A DNA stretch of 64,000 bases, from contig CAVQBK010000003.1 of NCBI GenBank assembly GCA_963710755.1, positions 32,001 through 96,000 on the forward strand. The letters are read 5' to 3'. The position numbers were made by a program, and so were the translations under genes. The notes beneath the pieces are model-generated. The model made no database searches, was not told the DNA's origin, and worked only from the letters and a program-made list of their open reading frames with translations. This stretch comes from an uncultured bacterium. GTDB lineage: Bacteria; Oederibacteriota; JAAXVQ01; JAUVAV01. Of the stretch, positions 5,382 through 59,630 are shown one piece after another; within the stretch, counting starts at the first letter, position 1; every line of letters begins with the position of its first letter.

Positions 5382-7628
5382 TTGCTCATAAAATCCAAAG
5401 CTTCATATCATACGGCGTCTTTAAGACGGTCACGCTGGGACCTTTGGTTAATACCCGCTTATTTTTTTCTCTGTATCATCTCCTCCTGGCATCTGGTCAG
5501 TTCCGATTTAACCAACGGCCTGTCCACGGAAATGATCCTCAGTGCCCAAACCTTGGGCATCAGCCAGACACCGGGCATGGCCGTTTATCTGGCGGTCTCC
5601 AAATTACTGCACTACCTGCTCCCAGTTCAAAATCTGGTGCTCAATTATGGTTATCTTAGCCTGCTGTTCACGGTCGCGGCCGGGTTGTTGGTGTATTTAA
5701 CTGGCCGGCAATTGCATTATCCGCCTGTGGTGAGCTTTTCATCGGCCTTGATTTTCTTTTATTCACCGCTCATCTGGAAGACAGCGCTGTTGCCCCATCA
5801 TTTCCCGGCCGATGTGCTTATCCTTACAGTTACTGTGCTGCTGACCATCAGGTTTATCACCCTGACCCGCCGCGCCTGGTTAATGGGTAATCTCGTACTC
5901 TGGGCTGCAACCTGCGGGCTGACCGCCACCCAGGACATTGCCTTTTTGCCCTGGGGCCTGGCCTTGTTTGTTCTAGGATTGAGTGTGGGATTGCCGCGAC
6001 TACGCGCCTTAGGCCTCCATTATCTGACCGCCTTTCTCATTTTCACGGCCGCTGCCTTGCTGCCGGTGTTTTACCTGCCTCTGCGCCTCACGGCCGGCCA
6101 TGTTTTCTTCAACAGCGATTATGTTTATCAGTACGCCACCTTGGCTCGCCATTGGTCCTGGTCTCGGTTGTTGGCATGGCTCGTTTGGTACATGACCGGC
6201 GGACACCACCCGGTGTTTTGGTTCCAGACCTATGCGCCTTCCATGATGGCCTTGGGTGGACAGCTATGGACTTTTTTAAAGACCTACCCTTTTATGCCCT
6301 TGACCATCATGCTGCTGGGGCTGTTGTCCAATGTGAAAACCATTTTTGTCAAACAGCGCCATCCTGCTGCCAGAGGTATGGATCATCCCGGCCGGCTGCT
6401 AATTGCCCTGTTGCCCCTGATCGCCATAGGCGGATCAGTGATGCTGTTACCCAATCTTAAATTGCCTCTTACCTTGGGCCTCACCCTCGGCGGCACCTAT
6501 TGGAGTTTGCGTGGCTTGGAGTTCTGTTATTACCAACTTGGTCAAAGCGCCGTGGACTTGGCCAAGGGCAAACGCCTTAAACCCACGGCGTTTGCTCTGT
6601 TTGTGGTCTTGGTGGTGCCGGTGTTCAGTTTTCTCCATACCTATTTAGACCTCAAGCATCAGATTCGCCATGCGGCCAACCAGGACAGTAACCTCTATCA
6701 GGCCCAGCGGCTTTTGAGCCGGCTGCCGGCCCGGTCGGTGCTGGTCTTCCCGCACGCGGAAAGTAGTTTTCTTTTCCAGTATTGTCAGCGCCAACTAGGT
6801 CTTGCTCCGGAGATGATGATTGTCCCCTTTTCCTATCATTGGCCTGAAGTCCCCTACCAGGGACCGTCCTTGCTTAAAGGTTTTTACCGCCAGGGCAAAG
6901 GCAACCAGCAGCACCGGCTTCTATATATGGCTTATTGGACGCGCCAACTGAACCGTTATCTGGCCCAGGGACGGCCGGTGTATTTTTTAAGCCATGTCCA
7001 AAATCCTGATCCGGTATTCGATTATTTCCTTCAATCTTTTCATTTACAGGAAGCAGCCACGCCTTTACATATTTGGTACCGGTTTCTCACCTCCCGGTCC
7101 CTGAGCATCTACCAGGTCAGTTCTTTGCCTGTCCCCGCGCGGGTAAGCTACGCTCCGGTCGGGGCCAAGCCGCTGGGTACATTCAACGAGGCGGTGGCCA
7201 TCACCCAGGCTACGCTGATGCCCCTGGAAATTAACCGACCCGACAGGCCTTTGTTCCATTGCAGGTTGAGCTGGCTGATACAGCGGCCGATAGGAGAAGA
7301 ACAATTGTATGTGCAATTTCAGGTCCTCCCCTTACGGGGGGCGCCCAAGCTAAAAATGCTCGATGGGCAGTGGAAGAGATGGCGCACCATACGCCGTCTG
7401 GGCCCGGGGCGTTTGCTCAACCGCATCAATCCCCAGGGACACTTTGATCAAACCTATCAATTGGCCATCCCCACGCGCTTGCTGCCGGGGACTTATCAAC
7501 TTCAGGTCTCGGTGATTAATCCCAAGACCAAAGAACGGTTGTCAGCGGGTGAAGCAGGGACCAAGGCAACTTATTTTTTAACCTTGGACACCTTTGAGAT
7601 TACCGCCTCAGGGCTGGAACGGCCGTAA
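5382..7628 (+). CDS. Polytopic membrane protein, divergent DUF2723/TMEM260-like GT-C glycosyltransferase
   Basis: E.I.SAQTLGISQTPG.AVY resembles the DUF2723 LGIxHPPGYP motif; about 10 TM segments, then a soluble domain ending L.IP..L.PG.Y.L.V. Confidence 0.55.
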   Translation: MLIKSKASYHTASLRRSRWDLWLIPAYFFLCIISSWHLVSSDLTNGLSTEMILSAQTLGISQTPGMAVYLAVSKLLHYLLPVQNLVLNYGYLSLLFTVAAGLLVYLTGRQLHYPPVVSFSSALIFFYSPLIWKTALLPHHFPADVLILTVTVLLTIRFITLTRRAWLMGNLVLWAATCGLTATQDIAFLPWGLALFVLGLSVGLPRLRALGLHYLTAFLIFTAAALLPVFYLPLRLTAGHVFFNSDYVYQYATLARHWSWSRLLAWLVWYMTGGHHPVFWFQTYAPSMMALGGQLWTFLKTYPFMPLTIMLLGLLSNVKTIFVKQRHPAARGMDHPGRLLIALLPLIAIGGSVMLLPNLKLPLTLGLTLGGTYWSLRGLEFCYYQLGQSAVDLAKGKRLKPTAFALFVVLVVPVFSFLHTYLDLKHQIRHAANQDSNLYQAQRLLSRLPARSVLVFPHAESSFLFQYCQRQLGLAPEMMIVPFSYHWPEVPYQGPSLLKGFYRQGKGNQQHRLLYMAYWTRQLNRYLAQGRPVYFLSHVQNPDPVFDYFLQSFHLQEAATPLHIWYRFLTSRSLSIYQVSSLPVPARVSYAPVGAKPLGTFNEAVAITQATLMPLEINRPDRPLFHCRLSWLIQRPIGEEQLYVQFQVLPLRGAPKLKMLDGQWKRWRTIRRLGPGRLLNRINPQGHFDQTYQLAIPTRLLPGTYQLQVSVINPKTKERLSAGEAGTKATYFLTLDTFEITASGLERP

Positions 7629-8914
7629 AATTTTTTAATCGCCACGCCTTTGAAGTAATGCTGCAAGATGGCCACATAGTCAAACCCATGCTGCGCCATG
7701 CCGCGCGCACCCCACTGACATAGCCCTACGCCATGACCCAGGCCATGGCCCACGATTTTTAGCTGTCCGCTATGAACGGCAATGGTATAAAAATTGCCCA
7801 ACAATTTTCTTTTATGATACGCCTTATTGATCATACCCCGGAAGGCATTGCCGGAAATGATTTTCTCTCCGGCGGCCGTAACCAATTTGACTTTCAATAC
7901 ACGTCCGGATCGGTTCACAAAATAGACCTGCACGTCCTGGAGTTTTTCCGCCTTGCCCAGCTGATGGTCCTTTTTTAATAACCGTTCCATACGCGCCACC
8001 GTGGTTAAGAAGGTCCACTGGTAATAGGGCGAACTTGCGCAGTAGGGACGATGGTCGGGCTGCCAGCGATCTTCCACCCGCACCAGATGGGATTGCAAAG
8101 GACCGGCCCACACTTCATTGACGAACACCGTATTGCCGCCACAGGTACTATGATAAAAGGCATCGACAATTTTATTATTGATGGAGAGCACTTCACCCAT
8201 GGTCATCTTGGCGGCCGCCTCGGCGCGGGGGGATAACAATCTTCTTCCCCGGTATACCTGGCAGTGAGGACCGTCGCAAAAATTATAGCCAAAGCGTAAA
8301 TGCCGGCGGCGGTTGCGCAGCGCCCAGGTCCTGGCCACCACGGCCTGTGCTTTCAGCGACTCCAAAGTAAAATGATTGGGATCCATTTCAGCGGGCACCA
8401 CCCGGGCGATGTAGGCCTCCATCGGCAATTCATTGATGACCGCCAGGCGGTTGTATTTCACCGATATCTCCCAGGCTTTGGCATCGTAGTCACGGCGCAG
8501 GCCGGTGTGAGGAAGCGCGAGGGTAAATGTTTTGCGACTCTGATCGATGGTCTGCAAACGAAGTGCATGATAGGCCGTATTGCTGTTAGTCTGCCATTGA
8601 CCGGGCTTGAAGGCCAGGAACAATTGGTCCCCATTTTTTTTTATGTAAATACGTTTGGTTTTTTCCGGAAGGGCGATGGGGTTTTCTTGGCCATCGTTTA
8701 ACTGGACTTGATTTTCCGGGATCACGAACAGGACCTCTTTAAAATAACGGTCCTTCCATACCCTGACCTTGACATCCGGTCCTGTATCCAGGGAATGCTT
8801 TTTCCAAAGTTGACTTCCCGGCGGGGGTGCAGGGGCACAACCGGCTATCATGATCGTCAGGAGCACCACCACCAGGCCTGCGGCCTTGTCACTCCGGATC
8901 AGGTCTTTAACCAC
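7571..8914 (-). CDS. SpoIID/LytB family peptidoglycan lytic transglycosylase (probable lipoprotein)
   Basis: VINELPMEAY...VVPAEM, LKAQAVVARTWA, CDGPHCQVY, FYHSTCGG.T, GHG.GHGVGLCQWGA.GMA; IAGC lipobox. Confidence 0.9.
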   Translation of the reverse strand: MVKDLIRSDKAAGLVVVLLTIMIAGCAPAPPPGSQLWKKHSLDTGPDVKVRVWKDRYFKEVLFVIPENQVQLNDGQENPIALPEKTKRIYIKKNGDQLFLAFKPGQWQTNSNTAYHALRLQTIDQSRKTFTLALPHTGLRRDYDAKAWEISVKYNRLAVINELPMEAYIARVVPAEMDPNHFTLESLKAQAVVARTWALRNRRRHLRFGYNFCDGPHCQVYRGRRLLSPRAEAAAKMTMGEVLSINNKIVDAFYHSTCGGNTVFVNEVWAGPLQSHLVRVEDRWQPDHRPYCASSPYYQWTFLTTVARMERLLKKDHQLGKAEKLQDVQVYFVNRSGRVLKVKLVTAAGEKIISGNAFRGMINKAYHKRKLLGNFYTIAVHSGQLKIVGHGLGHGVGLCQWGARGMAQHGFDYVAILQHYFKGVAIKKFYGRSSPEAVISKVSKVKK

Positions 8915-9314
8915 GTTTTCTTTTAAGCGCCGGTTTCACTATTTTGGCGGATTTGGCCTTGGACTTATGATTCTTATTGAGAAGTACCGGTGTTTTTAAA
9001 AATCCGTTAATTTTAAAATCAGGGACTAAATTCAGAATGCTTTTTTCTTCGGGGGTCAGATCCTTGAGGATGGCGGAGAGCCGGATATTTCTGGCCACCC
9101 GCTGCAATTGATGGGCAATTTCATGTTCCTTCAAGTTGGGATTGACGGCTTTGATGCGCAAAGCGGTTTTGGAGGCCAGCATTACAGCCTGCCCAATACG
9201 TTCCACGGGATTTTGTTTAAGAATAACTTTCAAGCTTTCCGTGAAAGCACCGATATATTCCTCTATGCTTCTTGGGGTTTTTTCGTCTTCTAAAGTGGAT
9301 AAATAGCGTTTCAT
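8907..9314 (-). CDS. Hypothetical protein with basic C-terminus
   Basis: 135-aa ORF with AGGGGG RBS whose stop overlaps the spoIID start; no motif recognised. Confidence 0.6.
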   Translation of the reverse strand: MKRYLSTLEDEKTPRSIEEYIGAFTESLKVILKQNPVERIGQAVMLASKTALRIKAVNPNLKEHEIAHQLQRVARNIRLSAILKDLTPEEKSILNLVPDFKINGFLKTPVLLNKNHKSKAKSAKIVKPALKRKRG

Positions 9315-9471
9315 GAACTGCCCCCTTTGGATGTTTGGTGAAATTGACATGATCATAACATGATGCGTGCGCCACTTCATCTGAAAAATATCGGCACGTT
9401 CACTTTCAACCTATGGGGTAAGCATCATTTTTTTTATTTTTCCATTTAAGTAATCCGGTCTTTGGCACGAA

Positions 9472-9847
9472 GTCTCTGGTGTGCAACGGATTGGCGGGGG
9501 GACACAGACAGGGACGTCTGGTGCCGCTTTCACTACAACTGGGTTAAAGGCCTTCTCCGGCGAGCTGGTTTTAACCCGCCCAGTCTTAGGCTTTGGCCGG
9601 TGCTGTTCGGCCGCTCCCCTCTGCCGTTGCAACAAGTTCGTACTCTGGACTCCAGGACTTATAGGAACTGCCGCGTCAGGCCATGCCGCGCTTGCCGGCA
9701 GCACGCCCGGTGGTTACGAAGCCGGTGCGTTGGGATGGGAAGTCCTGAAACCTGTCGCTGTCCTTGGGACAGAACGACGGTCTCCCGCAGGTTGTGGTTA
9801 AAGGCCTATCGCCCCTCCTCCCCGGGCCATGGCCTGCTGCCGGAGAC
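9472..9847 (+). ncRNA. Candidate large structured ncRNA of unassigned class
   Basis: Closing stem GTCTCTGG/CCGGAGAC, several perfect 8-bp internal helices, no credible ORF, followed immediately by an intrinsic terminator. Confidence 0.6.
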
Positions 9848-9849
9848 AC

Positions 9850-9885
9850 AAACGCCTCTCTCTGTAAAGAGGGAGGCGTTTTTTT
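9850..9885 (+). terminator. Rho-independent terminator
   Basis: AAACGCCTCTCTCT-gtaa-AGAGGGAGGCGTTT hairpin ending in a T7 tract on the + strand. Confidence 0.85.
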
Positions 9886-10032
9886 ACGGTCACCACACCT
9901 CATTTATCATCAGCCTTGAGCTTATTTAGGTGCCCCCACCGATTGGATCCAACCGCAGTATGGAAATGGCTTGAAAATGTCAGGGGAATCTTTAATTGGA
10001 AAAGTTAAAAAAATTAAAATCCTTCCACCTTC

Positions 10033-11319
10033 CTATTCCCTCACCGGCAAGCGCAGGACAAAGACCGCCCCGTGAGGGTCTTGCCGGTCCAACTCTATCG
10101 AGCCATCCATCTCTTCCATGAGATGTTTGACCATGAACAACCCCAAGCCCGAGCCTTGCGGTCTGGTGGTGTAAAAGGGTTCGAATATTTTTTCCGCCGC
10201 GCCCTGGGCAATGCCGGGACCATTGTCGGCTACCATCATCTGCACCCACGGCTGCTTGGGTTCATGCTGGGCCGTAATGCTGACCTGGCCTTGGGCTTCC
10301 AGATGATCGTAAGCATTGAGCAGTAGGTTGATCAGCACCCTTTGCAATTGTTCCTCATCCATCCACACCGGAGGCAAGCCTTCCGGCAAGTTGTTGATGA
10401 TAGTCAGGCCTTTATGATCATATTTTTTAGAGACAAAGGTCAGCACGCGATTCAACGCCTGCTCCAAGGGAAAGGCAGTAATCGTTAATTGCACCGGCCG
10501 GGCAAAATTCATGAGCGCTTTGATGGTTTGATCCACACTGTGCACATTGCTCAGCATGGTTTCAAAATGCCGCCGATCCGGATGTTCTGGTGCCATGGCT
10601 TCAAAGCTTAATTGCAGGGATGTGCCGATGATGGTCAGCGGATTCCTGATCTCATGCGCCACGCTGGCTGCCAGCTTGCCCACCAAGGCCATCTTCTCTG
10701 CCCGCTTCAAATGATTCTGCGTATTCTGCAGTTTGGTCATCATCAATTCCAGATGCGCGTTTTGCTGCTGGAGCTGATAAATATAGTAGGCGCTTTCAAT
10801 GGCCTGGGCGGCAAAGGCCAGATAAAGACGAAACAACTCCTGGGCAACCGGGCTGTTTAAGAATGGTTGCTCCGCAGACAGGGTTAAATAGCCAATAATC
10901 TTTTCGCGAATACGAATCGGCAGGATAACATAGTTGTCAAAATCAGCGGCAGCCAGTTGATTTAGGAGGGGATGGCCGGAGGGAGATTGGAATTCATTTT
11001 TTATCTGATCATAACTGTCATTGATAACCGAGGCGCGCACCGGCTGTTGCAGATAACGGGTGATGACATCCTCCGGCATATGACGAACAGCGGTGATCTC
11101 CAGTTCCCCGGTTCGTTTGTTGACCATCAAAAGACCACCGGCTTGAGCTCGGCTCAGCGCGACTGCTTTTTCCACCAGAATATTGCTTAAGCGGCCAAAA
11201 TCTTCCTTGTGATCAATGGCATTGATGGTTGCAAAGGCATCATTGATTTCTTCCAGCGTCGGGGCCATTATAGGTGGCCCCACAGCCGGATGGGTCACAT
11301 CTTTGGTCAAGGCCATCAC
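10033..11319 (-). CDS. GAF-domain sensor histidine kinase
   Basis: H-box VAHEIRNPL, N-box NLLLNA, DNGPGI, FEPFYTT, GSGLGL; N-terminal GAF-like domain. Confidence 0.92.
   Translation of the reverse strand: MMALTKDVTHPAVGPPIMAPTLEEINDAFATINAIDHKEDFGRLSNILVEKAVALSRAQAGGLLMVNKRTGELEITAVRHMPEDVITRYLQQPVRASVINDSYDQIKNEFQSPSGHPLLNQLAAADFDNYVILPIRIREKIIGYLTLSAEQPFLNSPVAQELFRLYLAFAAQAIESAYYIYQLQQQNAHLELMMTKLQNTQNHLKRAEKMALVGKLAASVAHEIRNPLTIIGTSLQLSFEAMAPEHPDRRHFETMLSNVHSVDQTIKALMNFARPVQLTITAFPLEQALNRVLTFVSKKYDHKGLTIINNLPEGLPPVWMDEEQLQRVLINLLLNAYDHLEAQGQVSITAQHEPKQPWVQMMVADNGPGIAQGAAEKIFEPFYTTRPQGSGLGLFMVKHLMEEMDGSIELDRQDPHGAVFVLRLPVRE

Positions 11320-59555: not shown

Positions 59556-59630
<75 letters not shown>

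Follow-up and report, generated by a model that had tools for sequence, protein, structure and literature searches.

The stretch of DNA analysed here (the window, to whose positions all coordinates refer) comprises 64,000 nucleotides (nt) of contig CAVQBK010000003.1 in assembly GCA_963710755.1, from an uncultured bacterium of the phylum Oederibacteriota. Positions ~9460–9885 on the plus strand of this window probably constitute a stand-alone gene for a multi-domain structured non-coding RNA (ncRNA) of ~425 nt, with its own Rho-independent terminator. Comparison with the copy in a second species of the same genus (G001) shows that the predicted helices are kept by both, that the terminator stem co-varies, and that only plus-strand pairing accommodates the substitutions. 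The original prediction described a GC-rich island between two minus-strand genes with a plus-strand intrinsic terminator at its end, and the GC profile, open reading frames (ORFs), and terminator scan all agree with it: the GC content is 60–62% across 9500–9899, against 40–52% in the flanks, and the island is flanked by a 135-residue ORF and a sensor kinase gene, both on the minus strand.

In a BLAST-type DNA search, 2 of 61 relatives contained the element, namely this genome and G001, so that the collection of homologues sought originally comes to one beyond the genome itself. The two copies are 73% identical over the whole length, and that of G001 likewise adjoins a small-protein gene and a SpoIID/LytB-like gene. 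By block, the identity is 82% for 9428–9477, 87% for 9478–9521, 36% for an insert (9522–9639), 79% for 9640–9750, 77% for 9751–9848, and 74% for 9849–9886; it is 39% and 36% in the outer flanks (9400–9427 and 9887–9960, respectively), the conserved unit beginning abruptly at 9428 and ending as abruptly at 9886. The two neighbouring protein genes are 77% identical to those of G001 at the DNA level and 57–58% at third codon positions, which suggests that the two conserved blocks are constrained about like first and second codon positions. Judged from these alignments, the pattern of conservation is well beyond chance.

Nothing in the unit behaves as a coding sequence. The alignments with G001 hold several indels of a length not divisible by three, and the translations of the five local ORFs match G001 only piecewise, with frame switching and about equally on both strands. 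In the 3′ half, no conserved block free of indels reaches 60 nt, and no Pfam match was obtained for the local ORFs. The short ORFs, for which codon-level conservation had been named as a check, have none, their frames being broken by indels, and no reading frame is shared between the species that would identify the unit as protein-coding or as a small ORF, including a type I toxin mRNA. With every frame broken in this way, the unit has no capacity for a conserved protein, and it is best described as a discrete unit under purifying selection at the nucleotide level. Short contigs from three DNA runs add no new variation: two were identical or nearly identical to the window (0 other letters; one with a 1-nt gap), and the third gave only a 37-nt partial match, less than 90% alike.

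The features assigned to the element are as follows, from 5′ to 3′; MFE denotes minimum free energy.

9428–9459, plus strand: conserved AT-rich upstream block (T-tract, then CATTTAAGTAATCC), the presumed promoter region.
9460–9479, plus strand: conserved 5′ leader (alignment with G001), the predicted transcript start region.
9480–9634, plus strand: Domain 1, with stems P0 (9480–82/9632–34), P1 (9483–89/9624–30), and P2 (9496–9501/9614–19) predicted to be stacked (MFE folds).
9505–09/9516–20, plus strand: hairpin P3 within Domain 1, with the loop AGGGAC, invariant in both species.
9522–9613, plus strand: variable insert within Domain 1, 36% identical and 28 nt shorter in G001.
9552–9565, plus strand: conserved island TTCTCCGGC(G/A)AGC at the tip of the variable arm (alignment; arm tip in both folds).
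9645–9652, plus strand: invariant linker CTGGACTC (alignment with G001).
9653–9747, plus strand: Domain 2, a predicted three-way junction with helices Ha (9653–60/9740–47) and Hb (9668–73/9696–9701, with an inner stem 9678–81/9690–93).
9704–11/9721–29, plus strand: helix Hc of Domain 2, with the invariant 9-nt loop GGTTACGAA (9712–20), canonical in both species.
9754–9778, plus strand: Hairpin 3 (GTCG-CTGTC / GACAG-CGAC), with nine pairs invariant in both species.
9780–9847, plus strand: Domain 4, with a closing helix (9780–85/9842–47), a 9-bp helix (9789–97/9827–35), and a small hairpin (9803–05/9811–13).
9814–9826, plus strand: C-rich tract CCTCCTCCCCGGG, of which G001 retains CCTCCCCGG; anti-Shine-Dalgarno-like and predicted single-stranded.
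9850–9885, plus strand: intrinsic terminator with an 11-bp stem (9853–63/9868–78), the loop GTAA, and a T7 tract (9879–85) (terminator scan).

Independent MFE folds of the two species gave the same domain layout, including the P0–P1–P2–P3 arrangement of Domain 1, in which P1 retains six pairs common to both species and P2 is G-rich/C-rich in both. The variable arm is unalignable between the species except for its conserved tip motif UUCUCCGGC. In the inverted-repeat listing, this island is complementary to 9839–46 over 8 bp here and 6 bp in G001, and a long-range pairing of the arm tip with 9839–46 may be formed. The junction strands of Domain 2 are purine-rich, all of its pairs are canonical in both species, and the loop of Hc, also written GGUUACGAA, does not differ between them. 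After one column was realigned, Ha shows a double compensatory change at its eighth pair (U-A here, C-G in G001), and two one-sided changes are found in the same domain (G-U/A-U and U-G/C-G). The loop of Hairpin 3 consists of TTG plus a C-G pair here and of TTCG in G001. In Domain 4, 20 pairs are canonical in both species, and three one-sided changes (A-U/G-U and two U-G/C-G) leave the pairing intact on the plus strand only. The C-rich tract, reading CCUCCUCCCCGGG here and CCUCCCCGG in G001, has predicted unpaired probabilities mostly of 0.6–0.9 and 0.4–0.9, respectively, and CUCC motifs are enriched in both elements (8 against 3.5 expected here, 9 against 3.2 in G001). All 54 pairs of a model written for 9645–9847, the helices of which were chosen on the same two sequences, are canonical in both species (49 invariant, 5 with one-sided changes, and none broken).

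Five helices had been proposed originally, of which two are not conserved. The inverted repeats 9482–89/9624–31, 9541–48/9570–77, and 9653–60/9740–47 are each complementary at 8 of 8 positions as described, and the hairpin at 9754–78 is present with its invariant pairs. The hairpin 9541–48/9570–77, although perfectly complementary here, lies inside the non-conserved insert. The closing helix 9472–79/9840–47 also exists in this sequence (seven Watson–Crick pairs and one G-U, by eye), but four of the eight bases of its 5′ arm differ in G001; it competes with the local helix 9780–85/9842–47, which is kept in both species. The 12-mer GGTTAAAGGCCT does occur at both 9542 and 9796 (0 of 100 shuffles gave two copies), the first copy being unconserved. 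The long-range pairs I1, I2, I4, and I5 were treated as chance or species-specific complementarities; I4 is not kept in G001.

The strand assignment draws on the terminator and on the one-sided changes. Relative to G001, the terminator stem contains two double compensatory changes (C-G to U-A and U-A to C-G, pairs 8 and 9) and a single one-sided change. A T-run follows the terminator hairpin on its 3′ side on the plus strand only, in both species; the minus strand reads GTTTGTGT / GTTTGGGT. The six one-sided changes (five in the body and one in the terminator) are all switches between G-U and Watson–Crick pairs on the plus strand and A-C mismatches on the minus strand, for which the chance is 1/64 by our own arithmetic if transitions are random with respect to strand. 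Based on these changes and on the placement of the T-tract, the plus strand is taken as the functional strand. Transcription would presumably start from the conserved AT-rich block 9428–9459 through an unrecognised promoter; alternative-sigma consensus sequences, compared by eye with this block, gave no clear match.

The element was compared with the 4227 families of Rfam 15, both at the gathering thresholds and in runs at E ≤ 10. At the gathering thresholds, the whole window contained only a tRNA (59559–59630). At E ≤ 10, the region 9300–10050 gave five sub-threshold matches, all including the terminator, and the G001 region six, whereas the body alone (9470–9850) gave none. The best likeness was to anti-hemB (RF02837), with 22 and 19.6 bits (E 0.011 and 0.031) against a threshold of 49.5 bits, a score driven by the C-tract and the terminator. 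The covariance search suggested as a check on novelty thus assigns the element to no Rfam 15 family and leaves it as a candidate new RNA family. As for the new large ncRNA class that had been proposed, the element does appear to be non-coding, structured, encoded on the plus strand, and without an Rfam family, but the word class at present covers two sequences from one genus.

The distribution is accordingly narrow in the genomes searched: the element is so far known, from sequence comparison, in two species of one genus only. The small-protein and SpoIID/LytB operon is found in 11 of 11 genomes of the family; in genera without the element, the next gene upstream of this operon usually lies 90–380 nt away, and in G008 a small protein gene fills the gap. 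A DNA search of the family gave matches in 3 of 11 genomes at E ≤ 0.01, the third of which was a 33-nt match within a long open frame of G009 and was rejected. A covariance model of 9645–9847 was run against 15 genomes of the order and, under stricter filters, against 101 relatives; it recovered only the known copies (E 1e-62 and 1e-67). The next-best match (G007, E 0.0056), which is not credible, lies antisense inside the diaminopimelate epimerase gene (dapF). Exact-pattern scans of a species-level genome collection returned the G001 contig only, and viral contigs gave zero exact matches to the two patterns tried; a single match in one scan of metagenome contigs falls in a coding region and was regarded as chance. 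Exact patterns miss copies with even one mismatch, so that the distribution from these scans is a lower bound.

How such an RNA would act can be proposed by analogy, and a trans-acting riboregulator mechanism, taken on its own, is put forward tentatively, as one possibility. The exposed C-rich tract 9814–9826, near the terminator, would pair with G-rich ribosome-binding sites (RBSs) of target mRNAs, while the large conserved 5′ domains (with the loops AGGGAC and GGUUACGAA, the purine-rich junctions, and the arm tip UUCUCCGGC) would serve to bind a protein or to control how accessible the tract is. The arm tip (9552–61) and the strand 9780–85 may compete for 9839–47, and this would make a candidate conformational switch. 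This mechanism is favoured because the C-rich tract is the sole feature with a known functional analogue and is predicted to be unpaired shortly before the terminator; the ~300 nt of additional conserved structure suggest a bound protein or a regulated conformation. Alternatively, though we consider it doubtful, the element could be the founding member of a new mid-sized (~400 nt) RNA class in which the conserved loops and junctions form a defined tertiary fold that has a specific partner, be it a protein or a ligand, or is even catalytic. Such an RNA would have originated in a deeply branching uncultured lineage that also dispensed with the signal recognition particle (SRP) ribonucleoprotein, and its narrow distribution would reflect the few genomes of the genus sampled, not dispensability. 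If transcribed, the RNA would be among the first candidate ncRNAs described for this uncultured soil phylum; among the papers listed for the phylum and in passages of PMC10434106, nothing was found beyond marker surveys and a few partial genomes. For a regulatory RNA restricted to one lineage, it would also be uncommonly long and intricate in its folding, so that probing its structure and looking for its partners would be reasonable.

Several observations weigh against a stand-alone, trans-acting RNA gene as set out above. With only two sequences, covariation has no statistical power, and a shuffle control of the 54-pair model is uninformative; the RNA body holds just one double compensatory change (Ha pair 8). 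Differing columns make up 5 of 108 paired and 38 of 103 unpaired positions, a contrast inflated by the choice of the helices on the same two sequences. The folding z-scores of the plus strand are modest (−2.6 in both species, with 1 of 100 shuffles equally stable) and those of the minus strand are better (−4.9 here and −3.9 in G001), so that thermodynamic prediction leaves the strand unsettled. A promoter scan found no sigma-70-like promoter upstream on the plus strand, whereas such a promoter, in canonical form (TTGACA / 17–18 nt / CATAAT), precedes the 6S RNA gene of this genome. When the two genomes are compared, the identity is 96% for RNase P RNA (289 nt available) and 100% for transfer-messenger RNA (tmRNA), against 73% for the element, which by this comparison changes far faster and is clearly under looser constraint than the housekeeping RNAs. 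An RNA of 425 nt conserved over ~300 nt far exceeds what a small RNA (sRNA) acting by seed pairing needs, and neither the complementary sites nor the RBS matches that were sought rose above chance: the longest antisense matches in the genome complementarity scan were 16 nt, some of them partly palindromic, and 8 of the 32 genomic sites of CCGGGGAGG lie before an ORF, as for any Shine-Dalgarno-like word. In addition, nhmmer did not find the element at the syntenic site of nine other genomes of the family, where the upstream sequence available was about 970–1100 nt in eight and only 221 nt in G002; among the upstream regions of the 10 loci searched, its own locus was the sole match. This absence fits a dispensable, recently gained gene.

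Among the competing explanations, the main rival is a protein-binding role, as a scaffold, a sequestering sponge, or a ribonucleoprotein (RNP) subunit, one version being a CsrA/RsmA-type sponge with GGA motifs; we hold it to be rather unlikely. The ~300 nt of conserved sequence include the unpaired AGGGAC and GGUUACGAA loops, the purine-rich junctions, and the arm tip, and conservation of unpaired positions is more typical of RNP RNAs or RNAs with tertiary structure. GGA motifs number 11 here against 6.8 ± 2.0 (reached by 27 of 1000 shuffles) and 14 in G001 against 8.7 ± 2.1 (15 of 1000), several being retained where adjacent bases change, and CsrA is encoded in the genome. This excess is, however, small (~1.6-fold), roughly one motif in two falls within a modelled stem, and only some are placed in loops or junctions, whereas a sponge would present them in loops or single strands. 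The CsrA gene lies directly after fliW, between flagellin genes, and in the corresponding flagellin–FliW–CsrA arrangement of Bacillus subtilis the antagonist is a protein, not an RNA sponge. Nor is a partner gene linked to the element, the 135-residue neighbour being present in all genomes of the family with or without the RNA, and the RNP RNAs of these genomes change more slowly than the element does. The minus strand, as a structured 5′ leader of the small-protein/SpoIID-LytB operon or as the 3′ untranslated or terminator region of the kinase gene, is very unlikely to be the functional one, even though both flanking genes are on this strand, it folds better relative to shuffled sequences in both species, and the hairpin 9850–81 could weakly terminate the kinase transcript. 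All six one-sided helix substitutions produce A-C mismatches there, the U-tract is on the plus strand in both species while the minus strand has GUUUGUGU / GUUUGGGU, and nothing like a terminator/antiterminator or an RBS-sequestering helix is seen beside the small gene, the start of which is more than 110 nt past the conserved block; moreover, the operon occurs without the element in other genera. Slightly less credible still is a sequence with no function of its own, that is, a decaying pseudogene or what is left of a mobile or horizontally transferred element, with its GC richness and foldability arising by coincidence. Its restriction to one genus, its position exactly at the synteny break with other genera, and its faster evolution than core RNAs would agree with this. 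But neutral sequence is nearly unalignable between the two species (36–39% in the flanks and the insert) while two blocks remain at 74–87%, substitutions avoid paired positions and never break a pair, and the terminator co-varies; there are also no paralogues, no exact match in viral contigs to either of the two patterns, and no transposase or phage genes nearby.

The other suggestion of the original prediction, a very divergent housekeeping RNA (SRP RNA, 6S RNA, RNase P RNA, or tmRNA), now has almost no probability and is effectively refuted by the presence of the other RNAs elsewhere, the missing SRP proteins Ffh and FtsY, and the genus-only distribution. Searching the rest of the genome for these RNAs, as had been advised, located RNase P RNA (C4:86987-87381, 324.5 bits), tmRNA (C2:14814-15168, 203 bits), and, on another contig, 6S RNA (C13:486976-487155, 79.5 bits), but not SRP RNA. 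The element matches none of the SRP, 6S, RNase P, and tmRNA models even at E ≤ 10, has no sequence similarity to either copy of the genome's own RNase P RNA or to its tmRNA or 6S RNA, and, by these model searches, lacks the features that mark RNase P RNA (RF00010, RF00011; conserved regions forming P4, normally in a single gene), tmRNA (RF00023; a tRNA-like domain with a tag reading frame), and 6S RNA (RF00013); instead of the ~180-nt rod with a central bubble of 6S RNA, its predicted fold is branched. Its size of ~400 nt is within the range of RNase P RNA and tmRNA, and SRP RNA was found with neither bacterial model in the genome nor upstream of dnaX. The SRP proteins are gone too, however, the element is confined to one genus while the SRP gap extends across the order and beyond, and the element is much less conserved than real housekeeping RNAs.

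This gap in the SRP pathway may matter more than the RNA element itself. In the genome (98% complete, 13 contigs, no N), neither SRP RNA model (RF00169, RF01854) gave a match, and none was obtained upstream of dnaX. Domain IV (helix 8) of SRP RNA carries a GNRA-type loop and a symmetric loop, and a genome scan with this motif gave no convincing candidate. The Ffh M domain (PF02978) and the SRP54-type GTPase domain (PF00448; Ffh, FtsY, and FlhF) each had zero matches, and tblastn with the Ffh of a relative gave nothing below E = 1. The ffh gene comes immediately after rpe in two relatives; here, the expected ffh site behind rpe (C1:161150-161430) is an empty spacer of ~270 nt, beyond which lies a convergent gene. 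Among 60 genomes of the phylum, each at least 90% complete, none of the 20 that belong to seven families (f1, f2, f4, f5, f11, f14, and f16, this genome included) has an Ffh M domain match, against 39 of the 40 that belong to the remaining twelve families. In the 61-genome sample, these seven families and f8 have no SRP RNA matches and no strong Ffh/FtsY-type PF00448 matches, f5 and f8 retaining one FlhF-like match; two of the genomes without any match are 100% complete in 7–8 contigs. A whole clade of the phylum therefore appears to lack SRP RNA, Ffh, and FtsY, and because both proteins are missing as well, the absence of SRP RNA does not rescue a divergent SRP RNA as an explanation of the element. 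A literature search on natural SRP loss gave no report for free-living bacteria among the matches listed, which is not proof that there is none. The genome also carries a flagellin–FliW–CsrA–flagellin cluster (C3:469600-472700), yet no FlhF or other SRP-type GTPase.

Further observations were made on the housekeeping RNAs themselves. A second type A RNase P RNA gene (C3:6382-6721, 194.5 bits, 46% GC) lies 25.6 kb before the start of the window; the main copy on C4 has 56% GC, and identity between the two is confined to a 32-nt core. Of 15 genomes of the order, this is the only one in which RNase P RNA has two full-length loci apart from each other, the two matches in G013 being adjacent fragments on one small contig. 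A DAHP-synthase-family gene beside the additional copy is broken up into three successive ORFs, and this segment could be decaying, foreign, or an assembly problem. The tmRNA (C2:14814-15168) is 100% identical over 355 nt to that of G001 (G001:C12:1013-1367), while the proteins encoded next to the element are only 76–82% identical between the two genomes and RNase P RNA 96%; this could be due either to unusually strong constraint, to recent transfer, or to a mis-binned contig in one assembly.

Among known systems, the nearest model, anti-hemB, resembles the element in being a stand-alone gene with an exposed C/U-rich anti-Shine-Dalgarno-like tract and a strong intrinsic terminator soon after it. 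RsaE/RoxS of Firmicutes are C-rich sRNAs that mask Shine-Dalgarno sequences. Compared with such C-rich sRNAs, the element is three to five times longer and has ~300 nt of additional conserved multi-branched structure, the likeness being one of layout. As a GC-rich intergenic island of several hundred nt with multiple domains and conserved loops and junctions, it also resembles OLE, GOLLD, HEARO, ROOL, and raiA, which we take to be among the Rfam 15 families searched; the element matches none of these models, is smaller than most of them, and occurs in two species of one genus instead of many lineages, without a characteristic neighbour gene. The faint likeness to 6S RNA (RF00013) at the paired ends, which had been noted originally, is offset by twice the length, the multi-branched fold, and the unconserved end-to-end closing helix. 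With CsrB/RsmZ, the element shares multiple GGA motifs, a terminal terminator, and the presence of CsrA in the genome, and the length of CsrB is similar. It differs in that the GGA excess is ~1.6-fold with many motifs in stems, CsrA is paired with FliW, and no Rfam Csr/Rsm family is matched.

The genes next to the element are as follows.

7571–8914, minus strand: SpoIID/LytB-domain gene, directly downstream of the 135-residue ORF.
8907–9314 (8907–9380 in the ORF list), minus strand: 135-residue ORF with an ATG start and a GGGGG ribosome-binding site before the ATG.
10033–11319, minus strand: GAF-HisKA-HATPase sensor kinase gene (domain matches).

The element is placed at a synteny break, with the small-protein/SpoIID-LytB operon on one side and the sensor kinase gene on the other. 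It is single-copy, no paralogues being found elsewhere in the genome. The surrounding 20 kb consist of ordinary chromosomal genes (glycosyltransferase-like membrane proteins, an M48 peptidase, TrkAH, and transporters), and no mobile-element, transposase, or phage genes were seen there. The 135-residue protein (8907–9314) has a Lys/Arg-rich tail and no Pfam or NCBIfam match. It is kept in 11 of 11 genomes of the family with 57–82% identity over the aligned part, its gene being always immediately upstream of the SpoIID/LytB-domain gene; the gene is divergent from the RNA element and also occurs in genera that do not have the element. On the plus strand, a 748-residue ORF at 5382–7628, likewise without a Pfam or NCBIfam match, is convergent with the SpoIID/LytB-like gene, and the 3′ ends of the two overlap.

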